Below are positions 31,720 through 49,875 of a DNA stretch of 64,000 bases, one piece after another; within the stretch, counting starts at the first letter, position 1, and each line of letters begins with the position of its first letter. Under the pieces are notes generated by a model. The model did not search any database and was not told where the DNA came from. It saw only the letters and a program-made list of their open reading frames with translations. The stretch lies in NCBI GenBank assembly GCA_965248435.1, contig OZ252100.1:2240001-2304000 (forward strand). Reading direction: 5' to 3'. Source of the stretch: Candidatus Latescibacterota bacterium (GTDB lineage Bacteria > Latescibacterota > UBA2968 > GCA-2709665). Made by a program: the position numbers and the translations under genes.

Positions 31720-33276
31720 TCACGGAAGAGCGAAGAGGGGCGCCGGTGGAAGCAACAGCTCGGCGACCACGCCTGCGTGATCGGACGGCCACAGACCGGA
31801 CGGCGCGCGATCGGCCGGCTCTTCCCCAACGACCTCCCCATCAACTGCTCCGACGATCCGCTGCTCTACGATGGTAAAGGCGTCACGGGCGAAGATCAGA
31901 TCGATTCGCCTGTCGAGCGATGCGGTCTCGTTGAGCAGATCACTCTCCATACAGCACGTATGTCCAGGTGCGTTGGGGGCCACTTGGCCCCAGACATCCA
32001 CGAACCCGGCGTCAGTGACCGTCCCGTAGCTCTGAGTAGTGCTACCGTCGGCAGCAGAATTGAAATCCCCCACCAGGATGACCGGAAGGTCCTCGTCGCT
32101 CAAGACCTGAAGCAACTCGGCCGCTTGGGCCTCCTGGATGGGCGCGAAACTCTTCGTCTCCAGGTGTGTGCTCACGAACCGGACGGTCCTCCCGCGGATC
32201 GTAGCATCAACTGCGGCCCAGCCTCGGAGGACGGTGATGGGCGCACCCCCACCCACAGGAACGGCGAGGTTGGTCGAGAAGTTCTCCACCTGGACGTTCG
32301 CAACTTCGACGTCGGCCCGCGCAAGGATCACCTCGCGGTCCGTGAGTCGAAGATCGTCGAACAGCGGAGCGCCCTCATCGGTGAACCCGCTCACCATCGG
32401 CAGTTCGATGTCGGCATTGGTCGTCGTCGCAACCGCACGATACGACAGACCTCGCGCATCCAGTTCCTCCAGTAGGATGGAGAGATAATCGAGCACAAAC
32501 GCCGTTGCGGATGTCGGGTTCCCGGCCAGGAAGTCGCCCGGGGATTGGATGCGGAACTGCGAAACTTCCTGCAGCCCCACGAGGTGAGGTCGTGACGCAG
32601 CGATCTCATCGGCGATGGCCCGCGCTCGCTCGGGAAAGTTGGTCGCCTGAATGCCCAGCCACCCCTCAGTCACAAGCCCGGGAATCGCCTCGGGCGAGGG
32701 CGCAGAAAGAATGGGGTCGATCGGAGCGCCCAGGTAGAGATTCCTCGTCATGGCGATTACCGAGGTACCGGAGCCGACGTCTGCCGGTCCCTCTGTGGGC
32801 AGCGAAAGGAAGTTCGGCTTTCCGCCGTTGAGAGGGATACTGCCCCAGCTTCCAACCTGCTCGCCAGACACAGGATCGGTTGCCCTAGCAACATAGTAAC
32901 CTGAAACGCCGACATGCCTGAACTGTCCCGTCGTGGGTGTCTCGACCTCGATCACAGCCCGACCATTCGTATCGGTGGTTCCTTCCCACCGAAAATCGTG
33001 ACTTTGACCGGAGATCGAACGGGAGAGGGCCACTACCACGCCTTCGAGTGGGGCCTCGTCTCGGGTCACGGTCGCAACGACCTCAAGATGGGTCGACACC
33101 GGTCCCGAAGCCCGTTTCGCCAAACCGACGATCGAAGTCTCCTCGCCACCGCCCGGTCCGAGAACCGACATGCCTCCCCCGTCACTGCCACACCCGGTCA
33201 ACGCAACGGCGAAAGTAAACACCATCGCGAACGCATGCGGATCTTTAAACTGGTCCACAAACTGTTTTGGTTTCAT
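31720..33276 (-). CDS. Lipoprotein with endonuclease/exonuclease/phosphatase (EEP) domain
   Basis: Lipobox LTGC; MTRNLYLG, LVGLQEV, STHLE, LVGDFNS, RIDLIF, PSDH; ATGA overlap with the MMPL gene. Confidence 0.88.
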   Translation of the reverse strand: MKPKQFVDQFKDPHAFAMVFTFAVALTGCGSDGGGMSVLGPGGGEETSIVGLAKRASGPVSTHLEVVATVTRDEAPLEGVVVALSRSISGQSHDFRWEGTTDTNGRAVIEVETPTTGQFRHVGVSGYYVARATDPVSGEQVGSWGSIPLNGGKPNFLSLPTEGPADVGSGTSVIAMTRNLYLGAPIDPILSAPSPEAIPGLVTEGWLGIQATNFPERARAIADEIAASRPHLVGLQEVSQFRIQSPGDFLAGNPTSATAFVLDYLSILLEELDARGLSYRAVATTTNADIELPMVSGFTDEGAPLFDDLRLTDREVILARADVEVANVQVENFSTNLAVPVGGGAPITVLRGWAAVDATIRGRTVRFVSTHLETKSFAPIQEAQAAELLQVLSDEDLPVILVGDFNSAADGSTTQSYGTVTDAGFVDVWGQVAPNAPGHTCCMESDLLNETASLDRRIDLIFARDAFTIVEQRIVGAVDGEVVGEEPADRAPSGLWPSDHAGVVAELLLPPAPLFALP

Positions 33277-35696
33277 TTTTCTCCTCCTTCTTTAAGACGT
33301 AGGGTCACTGTCTCACCCCTCGCCGTACCTCCCTTGACGTTTTCAACGATGGCACCGGCAGGGGTCCCTACGGCATTCCTGAATTTCAATCTCGAATCCT
33401 GCGACAAGCTTTTGAGCGCCTTCAGCTGCCTGTGGTGATGCAGCGGCGGCGCTTTCTTCAAGGCAAAGGCTGTGAGCGGGGGAAGCAAGACCAGGCTCCC
33501 GAAAGCGCAAGTGAGCATCGTGAGAGAAACCAACAAGCCAAGATTCTGGATGGGGGAAAATCCCGAAAAGGCGAAGACGATGAATCCCAGCACGTTGGAC
33601 GCCACGTCGAAGAGGATCGCTTTGCCTGCGGTGAGCATCGTGCGCTGAGTGGCCTCCTCGATCGCATGCCCATTGGCTCGCTCTTCCTGGAGCCGCGTGA
33701 AAAAGTGGATTGCAAAGTCCACCCCGATCCCTACCGCCATCGACGTGATGATGGCCGTGGCCATGTTCAGACGGATGCCGCAGAAGCCCATGATCCCGAA
33801 GGTCAAGAGCGTGGCAATCGTGAGCGGAATCACGCTCAGGAGTCCCTTTGCGGCGGATCGGAACGCGAACATGCAGAAGGCAAAGACCAGGAAGATGGCC
33901 GCCGCGATGTTGTAGACCTTGCCGATGGCGACGTAGTGATTCTGAGCGATCCAGATCAGGACCGACCCGCCGAACGCCACACGGACGTCCTCTGGAAAGT
34001 GCACGCGGGCGAGATCCTGCAAACGGCGGTAGATTCTCAATTGTTCCTCGTGGTCTGTGGCCGTAATCATCACCGTGATGCGTGCTCGACGATAATCCTC
34101 ATCCACCCACGCCGTAAGTTCCCGTTCGCCGGCGGACCCAGAGAGGAGATCAAAGGCGGCCTCGATCTCTTGTTCTGAATCAGGAATCGAAAAAGGAACG
34201 GGATGCTGACGATGCACCGTCGAATGGAGATGCCGCAATGCGTCGATCACAGATTCCGAACGGCTCACATCAGGCACCTTTCCAGCGGCACGTTGAAAGC
34301 CGATGAGCGACTGCAAGAAGGTGGGATGTTTCACCACATTGGGTTCATCCCCTTCCACCATCACATTGAAATACCGGACTCCGGAGAAACGGTCGTTAAA
34401 GACCCGAGTCGCCTTCCGAACCGGATGACCTTCGGGGAAGAGTTCAACAGGGTCGAGGCCCAGCCGGATGCGTGTGATTCCGATGCCAGATGCTACGATC
34501 AGCAGGAGTGTCACGACCAGTACGAGGCGTCCGTGATTCAGAGAAAATCTTCCCAGGCTGAGGAGCAGCCGTTCGCCTATGCTTCGTGAGCGATGTTCCG
34601 GCTGTTTTGGAGGCTGCTTTAGGAGAGTGAGAATGGCGGGCAGCAGAACGATGGCCAGCAGCATGGCAGAGCCTATGCCCGCCGCTGCAAACATGCCGAA
34701 CTCCCGGATGGAATTGACCTGGAACAGGAGCAGGGTCAACGTGCCGATTCCCGAGGTGATTCCTGTCAACAGAACCGGCAGACCCAACCGCTGCAGCGCG
34801 TGACGGATGGCGGTTTCGCCACGATGGGATTCACTGTTGTATCGGTGGATGACGTGGATGCCATAGGAGCTTGCTGTGGCGACTAGGAGGATGGGGATCG
34901 TGGAGGTGACGACATTCAGTTCGAAACCGAGGTAGCCCATCAGTCCGAGCGTCCAGACGATGCTGATCAGGATGACAAGCAGGGGGAGTATGGTTCCTCG
35001 CAGGCTTCGGAAGGAAACAAAGAAGCCGAGAAGGACCAGGGCCACGGCCAGAGGCAGGAGGATGTGAAGGTCGCCTTCGATGCCGTCGTCGATTTCCTGA
35101 GCCACGATGAAGTCGCCCACCGTATACAGCCGTTCCGGCCCCTCAAATCTGTGGATGATTTCGCGAACCTGCCGGGCCACGGTTGCCTGGTCGGCGGTTC
35201 GAGAGACCCGGACGAGGATCTGGGTCGTAGATCCATCTTCCGAGACCAGGGATCGTGCAGGGGAGCCCTCCGCCAGGAGTTGCTTGCGATACGTGTCGAT
35301 GGCTTCGGGATGGGCCAGGAGAGTCGATAGAAGAGAGGCCTCTGCGTGTTGGCCGTCGTTCCGTGGCGCCGGCAACGTGGCAAGGCTGGCAATCCCGTCG
35401 GCAGCTACGCCTTGTACGGTTGCCAGGGCGCCTGAAATCTGTGCGATTTTTTCCAGGCTCGCGGGCGAAAAGAGGTCTTCGCTTTCGACGGCGACCATCA
35501 TGATCTGTTCGTTGCCAAATACCTCCTCGAAACGCGCATTCGTCCGGATGATCGGATCGCTTGCCGGGAGATCGCCCTCGTAGTTGTTCCGGGTTTCCAG
35601 GCGGGTCATGCCAAAGGCGGCGGCCAGAGTCACGAGCGAACAGCACAGGATGATGGATCTTGGATACTTTACGATGATGTTGGCGATGCGATTCAT
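33273..35696 (-). CDS. MMPL/RND family transporter
   Basis: Two-repeat RND topology; SYGIHVIHRY and GIGVDFAIHF motifs. Confidence 0.9.
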   Translation of the reverse strand: MNRIANIIVKYPRSIILCCSLVTLAAAFGMTRLETRNNYEGDLPASDPIIRTNARFEEVFGNEQIMMVAVESEDLFSPASLEKIAQISGALATVQGVAADGIASLATLPAPRNDGQHAEASLLSTLLAHPEAIDTYRKQLLAEGSPARSLVSEDGSTTQILVRVSRTADQATVARQVREIIHRFEGPERLYTVGDFIVAQEIDDGIEGDLHILLPLAVALVLLGFFVSFRSLRGTILPLLVILISIVWTLGLMGYLGFELNVVTSTIPILLVATASSYGIHVIHRYNSESHRGETAIRHALQRLGLPVLLTGITSGIGTLTLLLFQVNSIREFGMFAAAGIGSAMLLAIVLLPAILTLLKQPPKQPEHRSRSIGERLLLSLGRFSLNHGRLVLVVTLLLIVASGIGITRIRLGLDPVELFPEGHPVRKATRVFNDRFSGVRYFNVMVEGDEPNVVKHPTFLQSLIGFQRAAGKVPDVSRSESVIDALRHLHSTVHRQHPVPFSIPDSEQEIEAAFDLLSGSAGERELTAWVDEDYRRARITVMITATDHEEQLRIYRRLQDLARVHFPEDVRVAFGGSVLIWIAQNHYVAIGKVYNIAAAIFLVFAFCMFAFRSAAKGLLSVIPLTIATLLTFGIMGFCGIRLNMATAIITSMAVGIGVDFAIHFFTRLQEERANGHAIEEATQRTMLTAGKAILFDVASNVLGFIVFAFSGFSPIQNLGLLVSLTMLTCAFGSLVLLPPLTAFALKKAPPLHHHRQLKALKSLSQDSRLKFRNAVGTPAGAIVENVKGGTARGETVTLRLKEGGEK

Positions 35697-35719: not shown

Positions 35720-36721
35720 CTATTTTCCTCGACTGGAAGAAACAACGTGGATCCCACTACCTCTCCTCGGCACGCGGCGCAATGCGGCTATTGAGGCAGT
35801 CGGGCGATCGAGAGCAAATGAACGATTCACGCGTGGTCGATAGAAATGCCAACCGGACTTTCGAGGGGACTTCGTATCGACAATGGGAAGAAGCGCGGTG
35901 CCGGTGAGCCCGGGAGTGCCGGCTCCAGAATGCAGCACGCGTGAGCGCAGCACGCGTTTGCTCGTTTGGAGCAGCGATAGGATGATAATCAAGACGACCA
36001 TCGTGAAGAGGTAGACCGTTTGATCGGGCTGAGTCATTCCAAGCGATGTCCTCAACACGAAGAACCCGCCGATTGGAATCGACGCGTTGTCGATTCCACC
36101 TCCTGCGATGGCTTCCAGGGTCATAAGGGCGAGTCCTACGAGTGTGGCGGTTGCCATGGCCTCGATCGCGCCCCTGCCGGTGAACAGCACGATTGGAATG
36201 AGGGTGCACAAGACAGCGATGAAGAGGAAAGAGATGGAGCCCTCCAGGCTTTTCTCGCCGCCTACCGCGCCGTAGCGATGGGATCCGTATCGGGATCCCA
36301 CCAAGGCAGCGGCGGTGTCGGCAAAAGTCAGTATCAGGAGCGGAATCGTGAACAAAATCGGGTCCCCTTCGGACAAAACGAAAAGCAGACCTGTTGCTCC
36401 AGGGAAAAGCAGATCCCCGGAAGACTGCCTTTCCACTCCACCAATCACACGGCCGCAGCGCTGCCGCAGGCCTTTTACGGACCGGACTGCAACCAGTCCC
36501 ACGGTTGTCATTATGGCCAGGAGAACGACCGGCCAGACCGTGTGAAAGAGCCAAGGGAACGGGAGTGCCGTGATTCCGCCCCCTACGTGCATGAGCTTGC
36601 GCAAACACTCCGGATCGGGCTGGCGCCGCCGCTGAAACAAGCTCAATGTCACCATCAGTGTAGATACGCCGGCCAGTGTAGCAAGGATTCCGAACCAGGG
36701 GTAGAAGTCGTCTAAGCTCAT
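35720..36721 (-). CDS. CTP-dependent phytol/dolichol kinase-like membrane protein
   Basis: RKLMHV, SSGDLLFP, FADTAAALVGSRYG, KSLEGS, GIDNASIP; ATG 36721 after GGAGAG. Confidence 0.85.
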   Translation of the reverse strand: MSLDDFYPWFGILATLAGVSTLMVTLSLFQRRRQPDPECLRKLMHVGGGITALPFPWLFHTVWPVVLLAIMTTVGLVAVRSVKGLRQRCGRVIGGVERQSSGDLLFPGATGLLFVLSEGDPILFTIPLLILTFADTAAALVGSRYGSHRYGAVGGEKSLEGSISFLFIAVLCTLIPIVLFTGRGAIEAMATATLVGLALMTLEAIAGGGIDNASIPIGGFFVLRTSLGMTQPDQTVYLFTMVVLIIILSLLQTSKRVLRSRVLHSGAGTPGLTGTALLPIVDTKSPRKSGWHFYRPRVNRSFALDRPTASIAALRRVPRRGSGIHVVSSSRGK

Positions 36722-36768
36722 AGCGGTCTCTCCATAAATTTTAGTTTTACTGCGATGTTCTATGTGAT

Positions 36769-36784
36769 TGCAAGGGGCGTGCCA
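36769..36784 (-). promoter_or_regulatory. sigma54 -24/-12 promoter (kinase-MMPL-EEP unit)
   Basis: Minus strand TGGCAC-GCCCC-TTGCA, perfect consensus, 47 bp before ATG. Confidence 0.88.
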
Positions 36785-37048: not shown

Positions 37049-38161
37049 CTAGACGATCTCCTCCAGGACGAAATCGCCATAGAAGAAGGTCTTGTCGCGT
37101 TGATGTAGCCGGTAGGAGAACTGATCGAGGGAACGGAGTTGTGATGCGAGGTAGTCTGGTCGGCGACGGGGGGTCAGCAAGTTCCAGTAAGCGATGCGTC
37201 CGCCGGTGCGCCCGACGTAGATGAGCCTTTCCAGAATAAGATGGTGAGACTCGGGCGGCATGTACTCAAAGATGTTGCTCAGATTAAACCGATCGAAACT
37301 GTTCGCAGGCTGTTTCCTCAGGCAGTCCTCGACTGACTGGCAACGCCATTCTAGCGCCCTGAGATTGTTTCGTATCGCTTCGAAGTTCTCGGGTCGAAGG
37401 GCATAAGGCAACGCTGTCAGGTGCTTTCCAGTCAAGATCCACTGAAGGTATGGATTCCGAGCGGGATCCAGATCTATAATCCCGTGTCGCGTGCGCTCCA
37501 GGATGCGGTCCGCCACGGTACCCTCCACATATCTGAAAAAGTTTGGATCCCGACCCAGCCTCCCCATAACTCGCCGAGAAAAGAAGAGCTTGAAGAGACA
37601 CCTCCACCGCAACGTGTCCCAGTGCCGGCCGTAGAAGGCACGCCGTCTTTCGCTTGTGCGGCTTTCAAGAAGTTGGGCGATCCGATCCCTCGAATGAACC
37701 AGGGGAAGAACGCGGTTCCTGAAGAGGGCGAGGTAGCGCTCAAACTTTCCGCAATTACCGATTCCCCCGGCGATGGCATCCGGGTGGGCGTCCCAGAACC
37801 CGCGTGTCGCAGATGAGAGTTGCGAGCGACAGCGTCGGTAGAGAGAAGCACGATTTAGTCCAGAGGTAACTCCCATCAGTTCGAGAAGCTCTGGATGGCG
37901 CAGCTCCTGGTAGGCGGCGACACGAAGCTCGAGACACGCGATCTGGGCCGGGCTGAGGTCCAGGGCCAACAGCCGCTCTGGTCCCTTGCTCAACAAGGCC
38001 ATACAGTTGTCACCGGCGGAAGCGATGGAGAGGCAATGGTCGCCTGGCTGAATATCCAGACCTTCTAGAAGGATGTCGGCATCCTCCCAGCACTGGGCGT
38101 ACCTGATAATGGAGAAGTCGGCGTCGACGCACGCACCGCGGCATTCGGAAATCATCGTCAA
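37049..38161 (-). CDS. DUF3419 / BtaA-like SAM-dependent 3-amino-3-carboxypropyltransferase family
   Basis: IRYAQCWEDADIL, SIASAGDN, DLSPAQ, GKFERY, NPYLQWIL, FNLSNIFEYM, AYWNL. Confidence 0.88.
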   Translation of the reverse strand: MTMISECRGACVDADFSIIRYAQCWEDADILLEGLDIQPGDHCLSIASAGDNCMALLSKGPERLLALDLSPAQIACLELRVAAYQELRHPELLELMGVTSGLNRASLYRRCRSQLSSATRGFWDAHPDAIAGGIGNCGKFERYLALFRNRVLPLVHSRDRIAQLLESRTSERRRAFYGRHWDTLRWRCLFKLFFSRRVMGRLGRDPNFFRYVEGTVADRILERTRHGIIDLDPARNPYLQWILTGKHLTALPYALRPENFEAIRNNLRALEWRCQSVEDCLRKQPANSFDRFNLSNIFEYMPPESHHLILERLIYVGRTGGRIAYWNLLTPRRRPDYLASQLRSLDQFSYRLHQRDKTFFYGDFVLEEIV

Positions 38162-38167: not shown

Positions 38168-40861
38168 TTAAGAGGGTTTGCGGTCGAGCAGCTCCACGAC
38201 TCCGGTCTGGCCATCCAACCTCATTCCCGTCTTCAGGATCCGAGTGAGGTCCCTGACGCCCACCACCGTGGGAAGTCCCATCTCTCGCGCGACGATAGCG
38301 GAGTGAGAAAGAAGGCCCCCCCGCTCCACCAGAAGTCCAGATGCCGAAGGAAAGAGCGGGATCCAACCCGGATCTGTTCTCAGGGCCACGAGAATCTCGC
38401 CATCCAATTCCATGCTTTCATCCGGGGAGAGGATCACTTTCACATTGCCTTCGACACGACCGGGACAGCAACCCGTGCCCTTCAGGCGGTTCCCGTCCAG
38501 GCCTTCGCCATCGGAGGCGTCCTCATTCGAGAAACAATCGTTCGACCAGTATACGGGGCCGTGCGTCGAGAACCGCCGAGCCGGTTCCAGTTTTTCGTAG
38601 CGAGCGTATTCGGCCTGTCGAAGGGCAACCAGGGCGCGCAGATCCTGGACGGTCAGGGAGCCTTCGACTGTGCCGTGAAGCTCCTCGAGGGTCAGATAGA
38701 AAATGTCCTCCGGGCGATCGATCATCGACCGAAGGGTATAGTCATTGCCGATTCCGTAAAACATCGCGCGAACCACCCCGTAAATTCGCGTCCTGCAAAA
38801 ACGCGTGGTTTCACGGTTCCTGACCGCTTTGCGGGCGTGCTTGAGCACCCGCAGATAAACGAAGCGTCTGGCGACCGTGAGCCCGCTACGAACGACCTTC
38901 TCTGCAGCCGTCCTGATCGCGCGCTCCCTTCCTTCCTGGGCCTCGAGCTCTGTAGATCCGGAGCGCAGGTAGTTCTTGAGACAGACGAAGAGGAAAGACG
39001 GATCCTGGTGTAAGTCCTTTTGCTCCAACTTCATTTCGTTCATGCAGCGGAAACCGTACTGCTCAACGTAATGGTCGATCTTGGTGAGAAATTCCGTGTA
39101 GCCCGATCTGTTCAGCACCTCGAGACACGTTTCCTCAGGCTCGGATTCGATCAAGCGCCTCAGCCCAGAGTCGCCTGCGACTTCGACGGCAAGCCGTATG
39201 AGCTCACGCGTAGGCTCTGCAGACTCGATGCTTCCTTCGCCGCACAGCAGATCGTTCTGCAGGCCGTCTCCAAGGTGTCCCAGCCACCTCGAAGTAAGCT
39301 TCTTCAGGAGACCAAAATGGATCATGCAGAGATAGTCATTGACGATGGGTGCCTTCCAGTGCCACAACAAACGAGCTTCCAACTCTCGAAAGTCCGCGAG
39401 TATCTGGTCCGCTCGCATGCGGGAGTAATCCTTCTTTCGGAACTCGCCGTAGACCTCGTGAAAATGGGAAAGGAATCGATTCACCATCGACTGAATGACG
39501 AAATGAAAGCCCAAGAACTTGAGGCCGGTAACTAGACGTCGCAATCGGGCGGCCATTCTTCCGTACTTTCCTCCTCCTGCAGTTCGGTCGGCCAGCTCCG
39601 CCTCCAGGCTCCGGTCGGTTCCCATCATCGTCTCCATAAACGCACGGTTGTGTCTGTATAGTGGCAGGACACTCGTCAGCCGATACCAGTTGAGGAGGTT
39701 GTAGTAGATCCTGCCATTGAAGCAGCCGAGCATGTTGCTGAGGAAGCGGTCCATCCTCCGAATTTGCTTTCGAGGGAGCAGCAAAATTTCACAGAACTGC
39801 TGGTATACCCGGTGGTATGCAAAACGGGCAAACGTGAACGTAAGCGGCAGAGTGATACCTCCGTAACTCTCAACGATGTTGGAGTTGTCCCAAATCTGGA
39901 ACAGGCCTTCACGACCCTGTAAGGCCGTGGTGACGGGCCGAGACTGAAGCAGATAGAGGCGCCCATCCTTCAAGCCCCATTCGATGTCCTGGGGGTGTCC
40001 GTAGAATCCCTCCACACTTTTTCCCATTGAGGCGAGCTGCACGAGCTCTTCCCGAGTGAGCGAAGGGCGCTCCTTTAGTCCCTCGGGCACGGATGTTTCT
40101 GTAACGCCTCCCCCCACATCTCTTCTCACCAGTTTCCGAGGCTTGGGCACGATTTCCTGACTGATGACCCGATCGTTTTCCTTGTCGAGTACAAACGTGT
40201 CGCCGTCAAACCGGCCCGAAACGAGCCCCTCACCGAGTCCGAAGACGGAGTTTATCGTAACCCTCGAACGATCATTCTTCACGGGATCACAGGTGAAGAG
40301 CACGCCGCTCCTGTCGGTCTCTATCATCTCCTGAAAGACCACTGCGACGTCGATGTCACCGGTGGGATCCACACAGCGTTGCGTTCTGTAGCTGAGACTG
40401 CGTTCCGAGTAGGCGGAGGCCCAGCACGCCTTGACCTTTTGCAGGGCCTCTTCTGGAGACTGGATGAAAAGAAAGCTGCTCAGTTGGCCGGCAAAAGAGT
40501 GGTCGTGCGAGTCCTCACCGACTGCCGAAGACCTCACTGCGATAGGGGCCGGATCGAAGAGGGCATAGGCTGCCCTAACTTCTTCCTCGACATCAGGGGG
40601 AAGCGGTGTTTGGAGTATGAGTTTCTGAATTTCGGCTGAAACCCTGGCGTGATCCTCAAGTTGCTTCAGATGGTCACCGATGGCGCGCTCCAGACCGGCG
40701 GCGCGTCGGAAGCGCCTGAACAGGTCTGCGCCCAGGATGACCCACCGCGGGACGGGGAACCCCTCCCGCGTCAGCAGGTAGAGATTGAAGCCTTTCCCTC
40801 CGGCCTCTCTTCGTGCGAAGGCCTGGGGAGTCTGTTCGGTGATGAGATTGGCAGGTGTCAT
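38168..40861 (-). CDS. PEP-synthase / rifampicin-phosphotransferase-like dikinase
   Basis: GGKG, AVRSSAVGED..SFAGQ, DIEW, LQSRPVT, NIVESYGG; C-terminal TDPGW..GGLLSHSAIVARE phospho-His domain; ATGA overlap. Confidence 0.9.
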   Translation of the reverse strand: MTPANLITEQTPQAFARREAGGKGFNLYLLTREGFPVPRWVILGADLFRRFRRAAGLERAIGDHLKQLEDHARVSAEIQKLILQTPLPPDVEEEVRAAYALFDPAPIAVRSSAVGEDSHDHSFAGQLSSFLFIQSPEEALQKVKACWASAYSERSLSYRTQRCVDPTGDIDVAVVFQEMIETDRSGVLFTCDPVKNDRSRVTINSVFGLGEGLVSGRFDGDTFVLDKENDRVISQEIVPKPRKLVRRDVGGGVTETSVPEGLKERPSLTREELVQLASMGKSVEGFYGHPQDIEWGLKDGRLYLLQSRPVTTALQGREGLFQIWDNSNIVESYGGITLPLTFTFARFAYHRVYQQFCEILLLPRKQIRRMDRFLSNMLGCFNGRIYYNLLNWYRLTSVLPLYRHNRAFMETMMGTDRSLEAELADRTAGGGKYGRMAARLRRLVTGLKFLGFHFVIQSMVNRFLSHFHEVYGEFRKKDYSRMRADQILADFRELEARLLWHWKAPIVNDYLCMIHFGLLKKLTSRWLGHLGDGLQNDLLCGEGSIESAEPTRELIRLAVEVAGDSGLRRLIESEPEETCLEVLNRSGYTEFLTKIDHYVEQYGFRCMNEMKLEQKDLHQDPSFLFVCLKNYLRSGSTELEAQEGRERAIRTAAEKVVRSGLTVARRFVYLRVLKHARKAVRNRETTRFCRTRIYGVVRAMFYGIGNDYTLRSMIDRPEDIFYLTLEELHGTVEGSLTVQDLRALVALRQAEYARYEKLEPARRFSTHGPVYWSNDCFSNEDASDGEGLDGNRLKGTGCCPGRVEGNVKVILSPDESMELDGEILVALRTDPGWIPLFPSASGLLVERGGLLSHSAIVAREMGLPTVVGVRDLTRILKTGMRLDGQTGVVELLDRKPS

Positions 40862-41772
40862 GAAACCCAGTCCGCATATCGGGTGGTAAGAACGCCTGAG
40901 TATACAAACACGATGTAGGCCGACGATAAAGCGCGATAGAGCCTGCAGAAGAGTGAGCAATCCTTCGCTGCATAGAGCACTCCGGTCACTACGACCGGGG
41001 AGGAGACGACGGCGATGAAGAAGAGGAGCGAAGATCTGCCAGGCAGTACACCATTGAAAAGCCACAGGACCCAGGCCATCATGCCCAGCACAAGGGCGAC
41101 CGCACCGTAGCGGCCGAAGACCTTCGAGTAAGAGTCGGCACCCGGGCGCTCTTCGTCCGAGCTAAACGTCTTGCGACCGAACTCGAAAATGTTGAACAGA
41201 CACCAGCTGCCGAGGGCCAAACGGTAATGAGCCGCTGTCAATGACCACGGAAATCGGGAGGTCACCGCCGAAAAGATGGCTAGAGAAAGGAGAATGGAGA
41301 CTGCAGTGTGCGTCACCGCGTAGGTCGTCAAGCGCGGGCGAAGGTGTCGAGACAGGAAGAACTCCTTGTACATCAGGAGCGAGTAGCAGATCGCCATCAA
41401 CATGGCAATTCCCGAATGCGTTCCAAACGTGGAGAATACCGCCAGCTCCACGACGATGCAGACCACGATCCCGATTTGGAGGTCCCGATGGCTTACAAGA
41501 CCGCGGACCAGAGGGCGTCCACGGTTCAGTCGACTGTCGACGGCGAAGTCCTTGATCTCGTCATATAGGCGAAGCTTGAAGAAGAAGGCGAGAGTGGCCG
41601 CAACCAGAGCGGCGAACCGCGCGGGGTTAAAGGGCGGCACGTCTTGATCGCCAGATAGCGTCGCCCCGACAGCGTAATGGGCGGAGACAAACACGGTGAC
41701 CGTGAGAAGATAGGAGAGAGGTGAAAACCGTTCTCGCGCAAAAGTCATCCATCTGGAGAGTTCGTGGATCAT
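40858..41772 (-). CDS. UbiA-family prenyltransferase-like membrane protein
   Basis: LRLYDEIKDFAVD...RPLVRGLVS Asp-rich motif; FEFGRK..EE...DSYS second motif; multiple TM helices. Confidence 0.85.
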   Translation of the reverse strand: MIHELSRWMTFARERFSPLSYLLTVTVFVSAHYAVGATLSGDQDVPPFNPARFAALVAATLAFFFKLRLYDEIKDFAVDSRLNRGRPLVRGLVSHRDLQIGIVVCIVVELAVFSTFGTHSGIAMLMAICYSLLMYKEFFLSRHLRPRLTTYAVTHTAVSILLSLAIFSAVTSRFPWSLTAAHYRLALGSWCLFNIFEFGRKTFSSDEERPGADSYSKVFGRYGAVALVLGMMAWVLWLFNGVLPGRSSLLFFIAVVSSPVVVTGVLYAAKDCSLFCRLYRALSSAYIVFVYSGVLTTRYADWVS

Positions 41773-43503
41773 TGGGCTTGCTCCTCTTGCAGTTGAAGCC
41801 GGAGCAGATCGTATTCCACCTTGCTGTGATGCCGGGGATCCATAGGGATCATCTCTCGGAAGACGACCTCGTGGACTGGAAGACCATTCTTCGACATCAC
41901 ACGCTCGATCTCACGCCGCCACCCGGCCCCGTTACTGCCGGGGACCGCGCACGGATCACCGGGAACGATGACGCATACGCATCTTTCCCCGAGGGTCGGG
42001 TCGGGCATGCCCAGGTAGGCGGCGAGCCTAACAAAAGGAAGGTTCTTCATGATGATCTCCGCCTTGACAGGAAACACATACTTGCCATCCGTCTGTATGG
42101 CGTTGTGGACCCGACCAACGATCCATAGGTGGCCATGTCTGTCTATGCGCCCCAGGTCGCCGGTGCGGTGGTAAACGACACCGGTGGTGTCGCGGATCTT
42201 GGCCAGACGGAAGGCATTCGGATCGTTGTAATAGTCCGAACAGACGTGCTCACCCGCGACGATAAGCTCTCCAACCTCCCCGGGGCGCACTTCGAGATCC
42301 TCCCAGTCCTCTTCCGACTGCAGATCGATAGGGCCCCGAGTGATTTTCAGAAGCTTCCAGTCGAGCCCGGGGTGGATCGGACCCACGTCCACACCTTCGT
42401 CCACACCTTCGTCCACGCATTCGGAATCCGCCTTGTCAAGCGACTTCCCTGCCAGAAGCTCGCGGGCCTCGATGTGGGCGATGGGTTCCACCTCGGTAGA
42501 GCCATAAAGCACCAGCACATCAGAACCGGGAGCGGTAGTCGTGAAATCGATCAGGTCATCTCGGCTTATCGGCGCCCCACCTGTGATGCGATCGCCTGAG
42601 ATATTTGATGGATATTCGGTTCCGAAGGCAATAACGGGAGACTGAATTCAGCAGGGATGGCGAAAAAGTGGCACACGTAACATTGCAGGCCTTCATCTGA
42701 GCCAGCAATGTCAGAGGGTCGTGCTCACTGGGGGCCCCAAGGTCGATGGCAGGGATGACGGTCGTCGCCCCGGCGGCGATGTTGTTCAGGCAAAAGATCG
42801 GGAAGACGGGAAGGTCGACATCAGACGGCAGATAGGGAATAATCTCATTCAGGGCATAGTGCTGGCCCGCCAAGAAACGATGTGTCCGGTTGGCGCCCTT
42901 TGGCTGACCGGAGCTTCCCGTTGTGAAGGTGATGAGCGCCGTATCCTCCTGCGCAACTGGAGTGACAGCCGCTTCCGCTTCCGTCTCGATCAGCTCTTCG
43001 ATGCTGGCGGTGTATACCTTGTCTGTGGGGCCCGCCGAGACCTTGATGGGTATCGAGACCAGCCCGGGTTCGGCTTCATAAGCGAGAAACGCCTGGTCCA
43101 GGCTTACCATGGCCTTTGGCGTGGTCATTTGAGCGGTGACGCCCAGATTTCGGCGCCTGGCCCAGGAGTCCAGGAAAACAGGAATGGCGCCTATTCGCTG
43201 AAGAGCAAACATCACTGTGTACATTCCGACTGACATCGGGAGGAAAACGATTACGCGATCCCCTTTTTGAATGCTCAACTCGCGGAAGCCTGCCGCCATC
43301 CGACGGACGCCCCGGGCAAACTGATCCAGCGTAATGGACTCGTGATCGAGGAGATCGTCGAGTCGAAAGGACCAGCGACTTAGTTTTTCCCGGGGAACCC
43401 AGTGGAAGATGATATGCTCCGGGTCTTTCTCCAGATTGTGCTCTATAAAGGTGACGACGTTGTTGTCCGGTGTGTCACCCGCCCTGTACCCGATGGTGCT
43501 CAT
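41769..43503 (-). pseudogene. AMP-binding acyl-CoA synthetase / OleC-like, frameshifted near 42590 (or sequence error)
   Basis: N-part has TFTTGSSGQPKG; the other frame continues ITGGAPISR..YGSTEVEP, HRTGDLG, RHHSK; ATG 43503 after AAAGGAGG. Confidence 0.85.
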
Positions 43504-43540
43504 GCTGCCTCCTTTGCAAGGACTCCTTGGTTCGCGGTGC

Positions 43541-44287
43541 TCATAGCTCGATTCCCAGCTTGCGTAGCGTTCGCACCTTTTTTCCATCTGGTGTCCTGGT
43601 GTAGATTGGACGCCTGCAGATATTGGGGATTCCTTCGGGCAGGGTTGCCTCCTGGTCGACTCGGTCGAATACGGTTGCGAGCGCCCCTGCTTCTTCGGGA
43701 CCTGTCCTGGACAGGTAGCTTAGATAATTGCGTTCGGCACCCGAAGAAACCTGATGCCGCACGAGGATCTTCCCCGTATCGATCTTCGGCTCCATCACGT
43801 GAATCGTGAAGCCCGCTGGCCGTCCTTCGGCAAGCGCATAAAGGTCACAGAGAACTCCGCGGTGTCTCGGGAGGATTCCGTGATGAATATTCACACATCC
43901 CAACCGAGGCGCGTTCAGGATCCTTGAGCGATAGATGCAGCGGGTCCTCACATTCACCACAAGATCGATATCCTGCGCTTCAATCCATTCAGCGACCCAG
44001 TCCTCATTCACACTCTTAGCCCGTAAAACCGGAAGGCAGTTTCTCTTGAAAAGGCGCTCGCGCTTCTTGAGGGGAAGCTCAGCAATGTTCCGTACCAGTG
44101 TTTTGGCGATCCCTCGAGCCCCCTGCCAATAGATGCCCCCGAGGCTGCCGACCAAGTTGATAGAATGCCCTCCGAGAAGCATGAGGCCGGCGAGGTGACG
44201 ACGCGAGCGCACAAACAGTTCCTTGAAAAATGGCTGATGGTTGTCGGGCACGTAAGTCAAAGCTGAGGTCACGATCAATGCTTTCAT
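43541..44287 (-). CDS. Formyltransferase family protein
   Basis: DLVVN, CVNIHHGILPRHRG, GFTIHVMEPKIDTGKI (N10-formyl-THF motifs). Confidence 0.88.
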   Translation of the reverse strand: MKALIVTSALTYVPDNHQPFFKELFVRSRRHLAGLMLLGGHSINLVGSLGGIYWQGARGIAKTLVRNIAELPLKKRERLFKRNCLPVLRAKSVNEDWVAEWIEAQDIDLVVNVRTRCIYRSRILNAPRLGCVNIHHGILPRHRGVLCDLYALAEGRPAGFTIHVMEPKIDTGKILVRHQVSSGAERNYLSYLSRTGPEEAGALATVFDRVDQEATLPEGIPNICRRPIYTRTPDGKKVRTLRKLGIEL

Positions 44288-44342
44288 GGCTTCGCCTAAT
44301 GCAGTTGTGAATTCCTTCCAGCGAGATCCGCTAATAGGGGAT

Positions 44343-44358
44343 TGCAAAGGGCGTACCA
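44343..44358 (-). promoter_or_regulatory. sigma54 -24/-12 promoter (formyltransferase to DUF3419 operon)
   Basis: Minus strand TGGTAC-GCCCT-TTGCA. Confidence 0.85.
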
Positions 44359-44579: not shown

Positions 44580-46595
44580 TTAGGCGATTATATCTGACTC
44601 CGACTGCGCTCGAAGCAAATCCCTTCCGTCCTGCGACAACTCGTAGACGCGAGCCGCCCCTCGCTTGTGCCAGTCCAGATAGCCGAGGTCGGTCAGCTTT
44701 CTCAGGTCGTTCTGAAACGTCCTTCGGGAATCTCCGCTTCCCGATGCAGGGGACGCGATACGATTCATCACCTCGTTTACCGCGGAACCCCCCTCCTGCC
44801 GATGAACGACCTCCAGAATCCGCCTCTGCCTCTGACTCAGGGATCGCAGAGGCGGAGCCGGCCTTCGGGTCTGCGTACCCAGCGCGTGAGAGATGTCTGA
44901 TTCCGTAAGGGTTGGGCCTTTGGCGTAAACGGCAACGGCGCGTTCGATTGAATTTATAAGATCCCTCACATTGCCCGGCCAGGCGTGGTTCATCAGCCGA
45001 TCGATCGCAGATCGCGAAAAGCCGCGGAGCACCTTGCCCGAACGCTGCGAGATCCGCTCGAGGAAGGTCTGAGCCAGCAGTGGGATATCCTCCGGGCGCT
45101 CCCTCAAAGGGGGCAACCGGAGAGGAAGGACATTCAGTCGGAAATAGAAGTCCTCTCGGAACTCACCCCGGGCAATCATCTCCTCCAGATCCCGGTTGGT
45201 CGCGGCGACGATCCTCACGTCGGTCTGAATCGTCTCAGTTCCCCCAACCCGTTCGAAGGCCTGTGTCTCCAGAACTCGCAGCAGCTTGATCTGAGTAACC
45301 TGCGGAATGTCTCCCACCTCGTCCAGGAACAGGGTTCCTTGGTGAGCCAGCTCGAACCGACCCGGCTTCGCACGGTCGGCGCCTGTAAACGCCCCCTTCT
45401 CATACCCGAACAGTTCGCTCTCTAGCAGCGTTTCGGAAAACGCAGCGCAGTTCACTGCCACAAAGGGTTTTTCCTGGCGTAAGCTGTTCTGGTGGACGGC
45501 CCTTGCGGCCAACTCTTTACCTGTCCCTGTCTCACCCAGGAGCAACACGGTTAGATCTGACGCGGCCACCTGTTGAATCGTCTGACGGACCTGACGCATC
45601 TGCGGACTGTCGCCGATCAACCCGTGAACCCGATCCTCACTTTCCAACGCGCGCACCCGCATCTCCAGCGTCTTGATCCGCTCGAGATAATACTCCAGAT
45701 CCTTCCGATGTATGGCCTCGAGAATCGTTTGCGAGCGGGCAAGAATCTCGCCGTCATCCTGCAGCCGGATCATACGCGTTTCCGGTCTCCAGGTCAGCGT
45801 CCACCCGCAGGAACAAGCCTTTGCGATTTCTGCCCGGGCGGGGTTGTCCAGCTCCTCAATCCGCCCGTGCATCTCAATGCGCGGATCCTCCGCAAACGTA
45901 TCCCCATATAGCTGAAGTGTGCCCTGGATATGGAGCGCGGTGTCCATGAAGAAGGCCCCGATGTCCTTTTCCAGCCCGAAAGGCTTGAGGCACGCCGCAA
46001 GCCGTTCACGGTTCGCATAGTGAAAGTGAATCTGAAGCTGGTTTTCCCCGTCGGCACGCATCTCGATATGGACAAGGTCGCCCGTAAAGATCTGGCTCAG
46101 GACCAACGGCCCCAGCCACTGCAACAGTACCCCGATGTTGCGCTGGTCGTGAGCCGGTGGCAAAGCGGTGATCAAGAGCCCAATGAGACTGATCCATTCC
46201 TTGTGGGGTTCAACGGCCACACCCCCACCGCCACGTCCCATCCCCACGCAAAAATATTCAGGTTTGGGGACATCGGAATAGGTCTTGGCGAATTCGAACA
46301 GGAACTGGACCACGTGGACAAACGTATAGCCCGGATGCGCCATCAACAGCTCGTACTCCTCTGGACTGGCAAGCGCACGGAGTTCCTCGGACAGGCGCTG
46401 CCCTGCGGCCGCATCCACCTCGTTCGTCAAATACCGCACCGTCGTCTGGGCCAGCCGATTCGTCACCACGATCGACTGTTCCTGGGGGCTGAGCGACGCA
46501 AGATCGGCGTTTAGACCCGTGATCTGTACCGCTTTTCGCAGCCGTTTGAGAAAATCAGATTCGGCGGCCGTCTGCGTGGACGACGGTTTTGCCAT
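44580..46595 (-). CDS. sigma54-dependent enhancer-binding protein with unrecognised N-terminal domain and wHTH C-terminus
   Basis: [48 protein letters not shown]; C-terminal [18 protein letters not shown]. Confidence 0.93.
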
Positions 46596-46636
46596 GTGAG
46601 AGCTCCGGAAATGATGAAGAATCTGCGAAACTGTAT

Positions 46637-46670
46637 GCAAGAAGATGCAATGATACGCAATCTCGCGCAA
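46637..46670 (+). promoter_or_regulatory. Putative upstream activator sequence 3
   Basis: Four GCAA boxes at exact 10-bp period; core CGCAATCTCGCGCAA at 46656-46670. Confidence 0.65.
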
Positions 46671-46791
46671 CGCCAAAAACGTCCCAGTGAATGAACCTCG
46701 TGGGACAGCGGATTCCGGATTCTGATCTATCTGACATAAAAATAACATCTTAAGAAAATTTATCTCCCTGCAGCAAGTTTTGGCAGCTGGG

Positions 46792-46976: not shown

Positions 46977-49875
46977 ATGAAAACCAGACTCATTTTCACC
47001 TTGCTCACACTCTGTATCGCGTTCGTAGAGGTCTCGGCCCAGGATGGGGGCGTCATCCGCGGGCGGGTCACAGATGCGGATACGGGTGAACCGCTCTCTG
47101 ACGTCAATATCACCGCCAAAGGCCCCGGGCTGCCTGAACCCGCCGGTACCGTAACGGACCCTGAGGGCAGGTACACGATCGACGGTCTACCCGCCGGCCT
47201 CTACGAACTGACCGTTTCCCACGTCGGATACGGAGGCGCGCACCGAAAAGGCGTGCGAGTCCAGATTGGAGCCACCGTCAGGCTCGATTTTTCGCTGGAG
47301 ATCAGACTCATCCCTGGTATGGAAATCACTGTAGAGGCGGTGTCTCTCGTCCCGGAACCAAACAAGGATGCCCCGGCCGGCACCTCAGTCGTGGATGGAA
47401 AACAGATCCGGGACCAGACCACGCTGAACCTGGCGGAGCCGATAAAGAATGAGCTCGCGGTCGACTACCACCAGACCGGTCTGGTGACTGGCAATACCGT
47501 CGTCAGGGGGTTCAACAACATATTCTCCGGCGCCCTCTTGACGCTCGTGGACAACCGGATCGGCCGAGTGCCGTCACTCCGCCTCAATGCCCACAACTTC
47601 ATACCGCTTACCCCCCTCGACATCGAGCGAATCGAGGTCGTTCGCGGCCCTGCATCGGCGCTCTACGGTCCCAACAGCGCCAACGGCGTGATGCACATCA
47701 TCACCCGCTCTCCCTTTCGCTCCGCAGGGACGACAATCAACATCGGCGGTGGGGAGCGGAGCCTGCGGAACTTTGCCTTCCGCCACGCGAACACCGTCAA
47801 CAACAAAGTGGGATACAAGATCTCCAGCCAGTATTACGCCGGCACCGACTGGAAATACGTGGACCCCGTGGAAGTCGAACGGAGAGGATCCAATCCACGC
47901 AGCTACGACGTCGAACGTACAACTTCGGAGATCCAGCTCGACTTCAGACCGACCGACGGGTTCAGCGCGATCATCTCAGGAGGTTTTACAGAGGCCAGCA
48001 ACATCGAGCTCACCGGTCTGGGCGCAGCCCAGGCAAAAGACTGGCGCTACACCTTTATTCAGGGCAGGCTGCAATTTCAGGAGTTCTTCACCCAGTTCTT
48101 CATGAACCGCAGCGACGCGGGCAAAACGACCCTCCTGCAAAGAGGGGATCTCATGGTGGACGAGTCGAGCCTGGCCGTTTTCCAGGCCAGGAATGCGACC
48201 AACCTGGGCAGGCACCAGCGATTCATCTACGGCTTCGATGTCCTGCGGACCCGACCCAAAACCGGAGGAACGATCAACGGGGAAAACGAAGATCGAGACG
48301 ATATCAACGAGTTCGGGTTCTACGTTCAGAGCAAGACGTCCCCGAGCGAAAAACTGGACCTCGTGCTGGCCGGCCGAATCGACCGGCACAACCACATCGA
48401 TGATCCGGTCTTTTCACCCCGTGCAGCGCTGGTCCTCAAACCCACAGAGGTACAGACCGTACGTCTCACCTACAACCGCGCCTTCAGCACACCGACCAGC
48501 AACAACCTCTTCCTGGACCTGGTTGCGAGCCCCGATGCCTTTGGCCTCGGGAAAAACTTTCAGCCGTCGCTCGGGTTCAATCCTGCCGTCGACGTCCGAG
48601 CACAGGCTGCCCTCGAAGGCTTTACATTCAAGCGGAATGCCAGCGGCCTCCCGATGTTTCGGTCCTCCTTTGCCCCCGCTGCCGGACTCTCCGCAGATCA
48701 GTTCATCCCTCTGCACGATCCCCAGTTCACGAACGTCATGTGGGGCATCGGACGGGGCGCGGTGCTCAACGGCTTTGTGCCGACGCTCAAGCAGCTCGCC
48801 ACGGGATCGATCGCCCAGCAGCTGATCGCCGGAGGGATGCCCGTCGACCAGGCACAGGCGGCTGGAGCCCAGCAGGCTGAGCTCTTAGCGGCGGCCTTCG
48901 AGGGCATCGTACCCGCCACCCTTCCGGGACTGAGGAATACCCTGGCGACCCTGAATCAGCAGACCCGGGGGTTCGACCCGATTTCAGACCTTAACGGCGC
49001 TGTCACAGAACTCCCCAAGATCAAGCCGACGATCACAGACGTTCGAAGTGGGGTTCAAGGGTCTGGTCGGCAGGAAGCTGCTTGTCGGTGCCGATCTCTA
49101 CCGGACACGAACAAGAGACTTTGTTGGACCGCTCCGTGTGGAAACGCCCAATGTCTTCCTGGATTCGAACACGCTGACCAGTGCCCTGTCGCAGTCATTC
49201 ACGCTAGCGCTGAATGATCCATCCGCTGCACAGCTGGCAGGGGCCCTGGCCGTGCTTGACGCACCCGGCCAGGGAGGCAACGGGAACGGCAGCGCGGTCG
49301 ATGAGCTGACCCGGCTCTTTGTCGCTGGCACGGACAACAACGGCGCCGCATTCATCCCGTATGGTACCGTCTCCCCGGAGCAGGCCTTCGACCCGGCTGC
49401 GGTCGTCCTCGCCTATCGAAACTTCGGCGAAGTGACCCTCTACGGTTTCGATCTGGGCTTCGAGCTTTATCCCAACCATCCCAACAACAACTGGGTCTTC
49501 AGCGGGAACTACTCCTATGTGAGTGAGAACCTGTTCAGGGACCTGGACGGGATCGCGGATATCGCGCTAAACGCGCCCCGTCACAAATTCAATTTTGGTG
49601 CAAACTATTCACGCCCTGGAACCGGACTTAGGTTGGGCGGCCGTGTCCGTTACAAGGACGCCTTCCCTATGAACTCGGGGGTTTACGTGGGCGATTTGGA
49701 AGCCTTCACAGTCCTGGATCTAAACGCGGCTTATGACCTGCCTATGAAGAACTCCAGTGCTGCGATTACGCTGAATCTCAACGCGAACAATGTATTGAAC
49801 AATGAACATCGGGAATTTGTCGGCGCGCCAGAGATCGGCCGGCTGGTATCCGGTGGGATAACCGTCGGCTTCTGA
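46977..49875 (+). pseudogene. TonB-dependent receptor, frameshifted near 49037 (or sequence error)
   Basis: Signal peptide, carboxypeptidase-regulatory-like domain, plug DIERIEVVRGPASALYG; frame switch in PTIT/TFEVGFKG; C-terminal Phe. Confidence 0.88.

Follow-up and report, generated by a model that had tools for sequence, protein, structure and literature searches.

We analysed a window of 64,000 nucleotides (nt) from a Candidatus Latescibacterota bacterium (contig OZ252100.1, positions 2,240,001 to 2,304,000 of the forward strand; positions below are counted from the first letter of this whole stretch). At 31720–49875 it carries a genuine variant of a widespread and apparently uncharacterised lipid-pathway cassette. 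Judged from gene content and sequence conservation, the predicted core comprises an acyl-adenylating ligase, a UbiA-superfamily transferase, a rifampin-phosphotransferase-type dikinase, a DUF3419 protein of the BtaA-type fold and a CdsA/polyprenol-kinase-like membrane protein (memX), and these five are strongly co-conserved across many phyla. The product is probably a novel kind of membrane lipid. Our leading reading, which we hold tentatively and at slightly less than an even chance, is that the genes of this region, read as two sigma-54-dependent units, build a modified membrane lipid that is then exported, by the steps set out under Proposed pathway.

An earlier note, made from the letters and open reading frames (ORFs) of the window, had proposed a sigma-54-controlled prenyl- or amino-lipid system here. 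The ORF listing, Pfam and NCBIfam place all the genes that it named in this region, closely packed, and Pfam and NCBIfam bear out its family assignments.

The cassette recurs across many phyla

A motif-based scan of a one-genome-per-species collection returned at least 591 relatives, of which 80 loci were kept. These loci were gathered through DUF3419 and searched by tblastn with the window proteins and two added families, a tandem GNAT acetyltransferase and a protein resembling the reductase of 3-hydroxy-3-methylglutaryl-CoA (HMGR-like protein); the resulting counts are lower bounds, as many contigs end inside the cluster. Alongside DUF3419 (80/80 loci), the dikinase and memX are each present in 72/80, UbiA and the tandem GNAT each in 67/80, the ligase in 61/80 and the HMGR-like protein in 47/80. 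The MMPL-type presumed exporter of the window is found in 7/80 loci and its formyltransferase in 1/80 (L072). The common order, assigned by Pfam in three loci, is HMGR-like, UbiA, dikinase, DUF3419, memX, GNAT and ligase. The earlier note had named a search for gene co-occurrence as a check of its proposal, and in these 80 loci, as in 80 further loci gathered through the formyltransferase (see below), the core genes prove to be co-conserved.

Judged by record titles, the 80 loci cover at least 15 phyla, and carriers include cyanobacteria, Chloroflexota, Acidobacteriota, Verrucomicrobiota, Planctomycetota, Gemmatimonadota, Pseudomonadota, Bacillota and others. Cultured organisms are among the carriers: a replicon of Brevibacillus laterosporus carries all seven genes, and a plasmid of a cultured Roseinatronobacter host carries the cluster under generic RefSeq product names only. 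DUF3419 is the most conserved protein of the cassette, its homologues across phyla having 55–68% identity; the best 119 non-self matches to the window protein have 61–68% identity and come from many phyla. At E ≤ 0.001, 5,735 protein clusters are related to it among 8,000 candidates scored.

No description of the cluster, nor of a function for any of its parts, was found in the full-text literature that we searched, whose coverage leaves out subscription journals and supplements, and the cluster is not described in the excerpted passages of PMC12419801, PMC7923214 and PMC6642084. Within this literature, and with generic names in the one RefSeq record examined, the statement that no characterised pathway has this gene set holds.

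Some individual loci deserve mention. L036 and L029 are labelled as metagenome-assembled genomes of a Halobacteriales archaeon and a Bifidobacterium sp., which reflects either mis-binning or unusually distant transfer. In L010 (Geobacteraceae), the cassette is flanked by a phospholipase D (PLD)-type enzyme (3472–4959) and a glycosyltransferase resembling monogalactosyldiacylglycerol (MGDG) synthase (15194–16345), and in L042 (Phormidium) a PhoX alkaline phosphatase (4029–6260) lies beside it. Such neighbours may link the cassette to phosphate limitation.

Interchangeable modules

At E ≤ 1e-10, the window formyltransferase has 127 relatives, in Bdellovibrionales, Oligoflexia, Myxococcales, Verrucomicrobiota and other groups. 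We gathered 80 formyltransferase-type loci from metagenomes and searched them by tblastn for the window families and by ORF clustering for the remaining ones, the Pfam names of clustered families being those of one member per cluster (L117, L129). By tblastn, the ligase is present in 68/80 loci, UbiA in 54/80 and the dikinase in 51/80. Clustering adds a DUF3419-family ORF in 54/80, in 35 of them directly before the formyltransferase, an NAD_binding_4 thioester reductase in 37/80, a 711-aa protein of no family in 23/80, a DAGK_cat kinase in 20/80, a 199-aa memX-like ORF in 19/80, an SRPBCC protein in 18/80, an alpha/beta hydrolase in 14/80, and MacB-type ABC, FtsX and LolA-like proteins in 7 each. 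The 199-aa ORF corresponds to the conserved core of memX: 12 of the 17 memX matches lie in loci with this ORF, 11 of them wholly inside it. The gene order of the window (formyltransferase, ligase, UbiA, dikinase) is found again in L116 (with HMGR), L072, L128, L131, L174 and L137.

Across both sets of loci, the same positions are filled by different families: GNAT or formyltransferase, HMGR-like or NAD_binding_4 reductase, memX-like protein or DAGK-type kinase (mutually exclusive among the formyltransferase-type loci), and RND or MacB–LolA export. These alternatives in each slot indicate that the cassette is modular: the capping, reducing, kinase-like and exporting functions each have non-homologous options. 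On comparison of the variants, the roles would be acid activation by the ligase, reduction, phosphorylation of a lipid alcohol by memX or the DAGK-type kinase, a further ATP-dependent phosphoryl transfer by the dikinase, UbiA transfer, S-adenosylmethionine (SAM)-dependent head-group transfer by DUF3419, amine capping and export. Most versions also encode a thioester reductase, which had no place in the scheme of the earlier note; the HMGR-like protein of other loci retains the class I catalytic motifs. The window genome encodes neither the HMGR-like nor the NAD_binding_4 reductase, and the HMGR-like enzyme is likewise absent from four other carriers in the phylum.

One group of formyltransferase-type loci (L117, 3846–18484, and similar loci among L116–L195) combines the DAGK kinase, NAD_binding_4, the 711-aa protein, the alpha/beta hydrolase, the MacB-type ABC protein and the LolA-like protein. 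Another subtype has SRPBCC together with a 153-aa protein of no assigned family.

A probable amine-capping slot next to the ligase

Wherever a locus has both a GNAT and a ligase gene, the GNAT immediately precedes the ligase (60/60); the window and L072 show the formyltransferase in this very slot. The formyltransferase matches PF00551 with 55.3 bits (cut-off 26.1). Its residues N133, H135 and D170 are invariant in 30 homologues; Asn, His and Asp are the catalytic residues of N10-formyltetrahydrofolate-dependent formyltransferases. Its nearest named NCBIfam families formylate primary amines. There are no close orthologues in the phylum, where the best identity is 28–37%.

The model of the GNAT protein (predicted local distance difference test score, pLDDT, 89.9) is that of a tandem GNAT. 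Foldseek places it nearest to MAB_4324, glucosamine N-acetyltransferase and mycothiol synthase (7q3a, E 5.6e-16; 5kgh; 1ozp), a resemblance to small-molecule amine acetyltransferases, and the top PDB sequence match of its profile is phosphinothricin N-acetyltransferase (E 0.0026). A search of the window genome for a tandem GNAT of this kind gave none.

That one slot can be filled by either of two unrelated amine-acylating enzymes speaks for a primary amine on an intermediate of the pathway. Since this is what a BtaA-like transfer of the 3-amino-3-carboxypropyl group would introduce, the capping slot provides the best indirect support for that activity of DUF3419. It also argues that the formyltransferase is the amine-capping enzyme of this variant and that formylation parallels acetylation. 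The proposal that formylation replaces the methylation carried out by BtaB does not agree with this: the formyltransferase fills the place of the tandem GNAT and is not a stand-in for BtaB.

Core enzymes

The best NCBIfam match of the ligase is PRK09274, and its nearest families are fatty-acid and beta-hydroxy-acid ligases. UbiA matches PF01040 with 35.4 bits (cut-off 34.2; homologues 48–52 bits). Its first Asp-rich motif, RxxDExKDxxxD, is invariant (D71, D75, D79). Canonical members of the superfamily have two Asp-rich motifs; here the second position holds an invariant ExxRK (E197, R200, K201), not DxxxD. The nearest solved relative of the UbiA profile is digeranylgeranylglyceryl phosphate (DGGGP) synthase (6m31, E 3.2e-5), and PDB sequence searches with a single UbiA sequence, with DUF3419 or with the memX profile gave no match.

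The dikinase has the three parts of rifampin phosphotransferase (RPH), namely an ATP-grasp domain, a central domain and a C-terminal swivel His domain. PPDK_N covers residues 87–382 (273 bits) and PEP-utilizers residues 888–955 (74 bits), with the phospho-His motif GGLLSHSAIVARE; the Pfam scan found no C-terminal PEP/pyruvate-binding domain. Its best PDB matches are 5hv1, 5hv2 and 5fbs (E about 1e-83). The protein passes NF004881 ("phosphoenolpyruvate synthase"; 1057.8 bits, cut-off 883) and falls below the equivalog cut-offs of RPH (355.4 versus 999), PigC (374.6 versus 1300) and RedH (418 versus 1350) as well as that of PEP synthase TIGR01418 (297.9 versus 739.75).

A passage of PMC6642084 gives DUF3419 as the Pfam family of BtaA. 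The window protein covers positions 5–382 of the 385 in PF11899 (231.3 bits). It has 23.5–23.6% identity to two btaB-linked proteins that we examined (H14 and H10), and 23–30% to other rhizobial matches. Each of these two btaA-type plasmid genes is followed by a small BtaB-type SAM methyltransferase; none of the 49 window ORFs that we scanned encodes a BtaB-like enzyme, as the earlier note had stated. An NCBIfam search with DUF3419 at E ≤ 0.01 gave no match, in a library whose inclusion of a BtaA model was not checked.

If DUF3419 were a true BtaA, the region could serve ordinary phosphate-sparing remodelling, in which diacylglyceryl-homoserine is made from diacylglycerol that the EEP lipoprotein releases as a phospholipase C and the remaining genes are unrelated neighbours. 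The shared Pfam family fits such a reading, EEP enzymes include phospholipases C, and single loci stand beside PhoX (L042) or beside PLD and the MGDG-synthase-like glycosyltransferase (L010). We nevertheless regard it as very unlikely. The same five to seven genes occur together in most of the 160 loci, EEP is missing from all 80 related loci (80/80), no BtaB-like methyltransferase is adjacent, unlike in H10 and H14, and the identity to these two proteins is about 24%.

The window memX has no Pfam match of its own. Among its homologues, 4/33 weakly match DUF92 and 2/33 CTP_transf_1, and the family has invariant charged motifs. The AF2 model, made for the ORF 35720–36790, which is 23 codons longer, has a pLDDT above 90 over about residues 30–270. 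Its best Foldseek match is CdsA (4q2e, E 7.6e-3, TM 0.25–0.31), and VIA gives Z 8.3 over 171 aa for CdsA and Z 6.4 over 91 aa for CarS (5guf). In Protein Atlas, memX yields unnamed clusters and a single DUF92 lead. A suspected frameshift in memX, based on an upstream 106-aa ORF, was discarded: alignments with homologues begin at the ATG at 36721, and what the window has is a short form with an unaligned tail. The RND transporter scores 281.6 bits against TIGR00921, below the cut-off of 351.9.

Organization of the locus

The cluster genes form two tightly packed units on the minus strand (Table 1). Unit 1, read from promoter P1, comprises the formyltransferase, ligase, UbiA, dikinase and DUF3419 genes, and unit 2, read from promoter P2, comprises memX, the RND exporter and the EEP lipoprotein. 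Junctions within them are 4-nt overlaps or gaps below 25 nt, three being 4-nt overlaps of start and stop; the sole larger gap, 327 nt from the DUF3419 stop to the memX start codon, contains P2. Several ORF starts in the original listing lay too far upstream and were shortened.

Table 1. Positions of the cluster features, and of genes near activator homologues in other loci
Feature	Position	Strand	Remarks
Formyltransferase, 248 aa	43541..44287	-	PF00551; corrected start ATG 44287
Acyl-adenylating (ANL) ligase, PRK09274/OleC-like	41769..43587	-	two frames: N part 42556-43587, C part 41769-42518
UbiA-superfamily membrane transferase	40858..41772	-	PF01040
Rifampin-phosphotransferase/PigC-type dikinase	38168..40861	-	PPDK_N + PEP-utilizers; start corrected
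DUF3419 (BtaA-family fold) SAM-dependent enzyme, predicted	37049..38161	-	PF11899 231 bits
memX, polytopic membrane protein, short form	35720..36721	-	no Pfam family
MMPL/HAE3-type RND transporter, presumed exporter	33273..35696	-	PF03176 165 bits
Exo_endo_phos (EEP) lipoprotein, final gene of unit 2	31720..33276	-	PF03372 46 bits; lipobox LTGC
Sigma-54 enhancer-binding protein (activator)	44580..46595	-	PF00158 243 bits; start corrected
TonB-dependent receptor, signal peptide, divergent from activator	46978..49875	+	two frames
Sigma-54 promoter P1, TGGTACGCCCTTTGCAATC	44340..44358	-	56 nt upstream of formyltransferase ATG
Sigma-54 promoter P2, TGGCACGCCCCTTGCAATC	36766..36784	-	48 nt upstream of memX ATG
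Terminator-like hairpin between activator gene and P1	44499..44530	-	14 pairs + T-run
Hairpin between convergent ends of unit 2 and neighbouring GHL10-like gene	31639..31671	.	14 pairs
Genes beside activator homologues	L204 7710-9074, 12422-13771; L203 7873-8787, 5044-7029		in cluster-free genomes

Borders of the island could not be drawn by synteny: the orthologues of its two flanking genes lie about 486 kb apart in a genome of the same genus. An IS200-like transposase gene (52474–52890, minus strand) lies 2.6 kb past the receptor gene. Upstream of the cluster are a DUF6785/DUF6784 protein (25298–27331, plus strand) and a Fic-family protein (16319–17395, minus strand), for which we saw no link to the cluster. 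Farther away, a nitrile-hydratase-alpha-like protein with a weak Frankia_peptide match (8095–8775, minus strand) lies near a radical SAM protein (9578–11131, minus strand); these genes may form a peptide natural-product locus of the nitrile-hydratase-leader type.

Predicted sigma-54 control

P1 and P2 are identical at 17 of 19 bases, spacer and flank included. The degenerate 19-mer TGGYACGCCCYTTGCAATC has two matches in the window, compared to 0.00 expected from shuffled sequences, and no third match in the 5.67-Mb genome, P1 and P2 being both sites. With 0 and 1 mismatches to the sigma-54 consensus, the two promoters are its sole perfect match and one of its two one-mismatch matches, both located on the coding strand, 48 nt upstream of the memX start codon and 56 nt upstream of that of the formyltransferase. 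When up to two mismatches are allowed, the consensus shows no enrichment in the window (29 matches versus 21.9 expected). The genome encodes rpoN (448.9 bits) and the activator gene adjoins the cluster, in keeping with the dedicated sigma-54 control suggested before. From these sites and genes, predicted sigma-54 control of both units is well supported. As to activator binding, a search for shared motifs upstream gave only short common words and established no sites. Separately, about 350 nt upstream of the IS200-like transposase gene there is a third sigma-54-like site with one mismatch (53236–53251, minus strand) and hairpins behind it.

The 325-aa N-terminal domain of the activator matches no Pfam family. 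Another 16 genomes of the phylum, all of them cluster-free, encode homologues of the activator, whose sensor domains have 33–56% identity among the longer matches. We inspected three of these 16 neighbourhoods, all in cluster-free genomes (Table 1). In the first, a 52%-identical EEP gene is divergent from the activator homologue, with a sigma-54-like site on the EEP strand and a CDP-alcohol phosphatidyltransferase gene downstream. The second has a fatty-acid desaturase, a GH3-family (adenylating enzyme) gene and a related TonB receptor, and the third a C-N hydrolase and a transposase. There are hints here that the activator homologues form a lipid- or envelope-responsive regulator family.

Among the 80 DUF3419 loci, neither the EEP lipoprotein (0/80) nor the TonB receptor (0/80) is found. 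An activator conserved beside the cluster was considered and rejected: the single match (1/80, L061/L110) is partial, a 75-residue AAA+ segment at the end of the locus, 3 kb away. On this comparison, the activator, EEP lipoprotein and TonB receptor appear to be lineage-specific additions outside the conserved system, contrary to the earlier note, which had counted them as its parts. Judging by three of the 16 activator loci, the three genes look like a resident envelope or lipid regulon into which the acquired cassette was placed. Given that these genes are not conserved with the cassette, and that activator homologues stand beside other lipid genes, import of the alcohol substrate is left without comparative support.

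The receptor and the RND pump, which flank the window genes, would suit a different kind of product, a secreted small molecule such as a prenylated, N-capped amino-acid metallophore or signal that leaves through the pump and returns through the receptor. The 3-amino-3-carboxypropyl group is found in opine-type metallophores, and the PigC/RedH-type relatives of the dikinase act in pigment synthesis. We consider such a product improbable, since the receptor is missing from 80/80 related loci, the accessory genes elsewhere are lipid-handling (MMPL, MacB/LolA-like, SRPBCC, DAGK), and two of the core enzymes, UbiA and memX, are polytopic proteins of the membrane.

Frameshifts in the ligase and receptor genes

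The ligase and the receptor are each split over two reading frames. The alignment with a full-length ligase homologue follows frame -2 as far as 42592 and frame -3 from 42587 onward, and the receptor frame switches near 49036. Contigs built independently from runs X1 and X3 (depth 10.6 and 41) are identical to the window over both sites; runs X1–X4 come from one sample, probably the source sample, and are not independent of the assembly. In a related strain from a different study (run X5), diverged by a few per cent, the sequence is one base shorter at 42589 and two bases longer behind 49036, which by arithmetic restores both reading frames. A further 12 bases are missing from its ligase at 42386, as are 201 bases at 46576–46776, between the activator and receptor genes, including the mapped activator start. 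On these contigs we take both frameshifts to be real sequence features, with ligase and receptor apparently intact in the related strain and frameshifted here. The pathway is then probably impaired in this strain: the variant is genuine but the cassette partly decayed.

It is quite possible, though somewhat short of an even chance, that the cluster here is a decaying, horizontally acquired island whose product is no longer made, an explanation compatible with any of the proposed chemistries. Besides the frameshifts, identical in the X1 and X3 contigs, it agrees with the patchy occurrence of the cassette, as an alignment profile of DUF3419 (E ≤ 1e-20) finds the cluster-type protein in only 5 of 168 genomes searched in the phylum and a protein query finds no match in the 40 nearest relatives. 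The nearby IS200-like transposase gene and the absence of a reductase and of a GNAT from the genome point the same way. However, of the eight cluster genes, seven are in frame throughout and retain their conserved motifs, both promoters are intact, and a two-part ligase might still function. A sequencing or consensus error common to X1–X4, which probably share the source sample, is also possible.

Proposed pathway

In our leading reading, memX and the dikinase would raise a long-chain or isoprenoid alcohol to its diphosphate; in reductase-bearing versions, this alcohol would derive from an acid through ligase and reductase. UbiA would join the activated chain to a hydroxyl-bearing backbone. 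DUF3419 would add the SAM-derived 3-amino-3-carboxypropyl group, as BtaA does on diacylglycerol, the formyltransferase would formylate the newly introduced amine and the RND pump would carry the lipid outward. We infer the order of these steps. The overall scheme of the earlier note is plausible and unproven, its step order being likewise inferred. Its assignment of memX as a kinase corresponds to weak profile and fold similarity to CdsA, CarS and DUF92 only.

Several points weigh against this pathway. Each of its steps and each enzyme substrate is a proposal from gene content. UbiA, which deviates from the canonical second Asp-rich motif, may carry out a chemistry different from prenyl transfer, and DUF3419 could be methyltransferase-like rather than a 3-amino-3-carboxypropyl transferase. 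The kinase assignment of memX is weak, given the missing Pfam family, the Foldseek E of 7.6e-3 and a Z score (8.3) that is common for helical bundles. A search of five related loci gave no sigma-54 promoter ahead of the cluster, which indicates that this control is local to the lineage. The evidence from the related strain is one X5 contig of depth 4.6. Should the alcohol come from the joint action of ligase and reductase, it is hard to see what the ligase would do in this genome, which lacks the reductase. Lastly, the strict pairing of capping enzyme and ligase would fit a scheme in which the ligase acts on a capped amino acid.

Such a scheme is the main rival. In a linear elaboration of the head group, DUF3419 would first attach the 3-amino-3-carboxypropyl group to a lipid, a formyl or acetyl group would block the amine, the ligase would activate the N-blocked carboxylate and the reductase would give an amino alcohol; memX or the DAGK kinase together with the dikinase would phosphorylate this alcohol, and UbiA would join the head group, now activated, to the phosphate of a polyprenyl or another lipid. 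Analogues exist in arginine synthesis, where N-acetylglutamate is activated and reduced, and in phosphoribosyl-transferring UbiA enzymes. The scheme accounts for the position of the capping enzyme, always directly before the ligase (60/60 GNAT loci, with the formyltransferase in the same slot), and for the alternation of two unrelated thioester reductases (HMGR-like, 47/80; NAD_binding_4, 37/80), the first with its catalytic motifs retained. It is also in line with the replacement of memX by DAGK_cat, the family of sphingosine and ceramide kinases, and with the top PDB match of the GNAT profile, which acetylates a 4-substituted 2-aminobutanoate. On the other hand, the carriers without a reductase (this genome, and four others in the phylum that lack the HMGR-like enzyme) keep memX, dikinase and UbiA, which would then be left without substrate; the ligase is nearest to fatty-acid and beta-hydroxy-acid ligases; and we know of no precedent for a non-allylic diphosphate donor of a UbiA enzyme. 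The linear scheme thus explains the capping–ligase pairing better and the reductase-less clusters worse, and we judge it unlikely overall.

Implications

The cassette is common, with at least 591 matching stretches at one genome per species and more than 5,700 protein clusters. Our pathway may have a broader counterpart, which we put forward as a possibility more doubtful than likely: an unrecognised class of exported lipids made in many phyla, with a SAM-derived 3-amino-3-carboxypropyl head (or a reduced, phosphorylated form of it) under an acetyl or formyl cap, a chain attached by an atypical UbiA and a donor activated by the dikinase. If so, the rifampin-phosphotransferase "resistance" family would gain a native role in lipid (di)phosphorylation.

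The map of interchangeable parts turns the cluster into a short list of testable reactions, and cultured carriers exist, among them Alkalilimnicola ehrlichii AK92, Roseinatronobacter sp. S2 and Phormidium tenue FACHB-886. Once identified, the product would probably be a further lipid class for environmental lipidomics to use, and rifampin-phosphotransferase-like dikinases would gain a physiological function, as would a large DUF3419 subfamily that is now mis-annotated as synthase of diacylglyceryl-trimethylhomoserine (DGTS). Its identity would also explain the orphan HMG-CoA-reductase genes in cyanobacterial loci; cyanobacteria are not known to have the mevalonate pathway.

Comparison with known systems

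The cassette shares a full-length DUF3419 protein, a membrane-lipid context and a subsequent modification of the amine with the BtaA/BtaB system of DGTS synthesis. It differs in its roughly 24% identity to btaB-linked proteins and in having no BtaB; where BtaB would trimethylate the amine, the cassette apparently adds a formyl or acetyl group, and DUF3419 is always linked to UbiA, dikinase and ligase, none of which is needed for DGTS.

Salvage of phytol into tocopherol employs the kinases VTE5 and VTE6 (DUF92) and the UbiA-type prenyltransferase VTE2. The logic of two kinases and a UbiA enzyme is the same, and memX homologues weakly match DUF92; in the cassette, however, one kinase role would fall to a rifampin-phosphotransferase-type dikinase, a pathway to an aromatic acceptor is missing and there are additional SAM, capping and ligase steps. 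Archaeal ether-lipid synthesis likewise offers a parallel in consecutive enzymes, as UbiA is nearest to DGGGP synthase (6m31) and memX to CdsA (4q2e) and CarS (5guf). These similarities are weak, the second UbiA motif is different, and the cluster contains neither geranylgeranylglyceryl phosphate synthase nor glycerol-1-phosphate dehydrogenase.

RPH and PigC/RedH are the best PDB and NCBIfam relatives of the dikinase and are built from the same three parts, with the swivel His domain at the C-terminus; the dikinase scores far below their equivalog cut-offs and is encoded in a lipid cluster, translationally coupled to UbiA, and not in a resistance context. Precedents for blocking an amine are the N-acetylglutamate pathway, the loading of N-acetyl-demethylphosphinothricin and the transient N-formylation in the Arn pathway of lipid A modification. 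Their enzyme families are different and the cassette has no carrier protein, but they share with it the pairing of an N-acyl- or N-formyltransferase with a carboxylate-activating enzyme, often together with a reductase.

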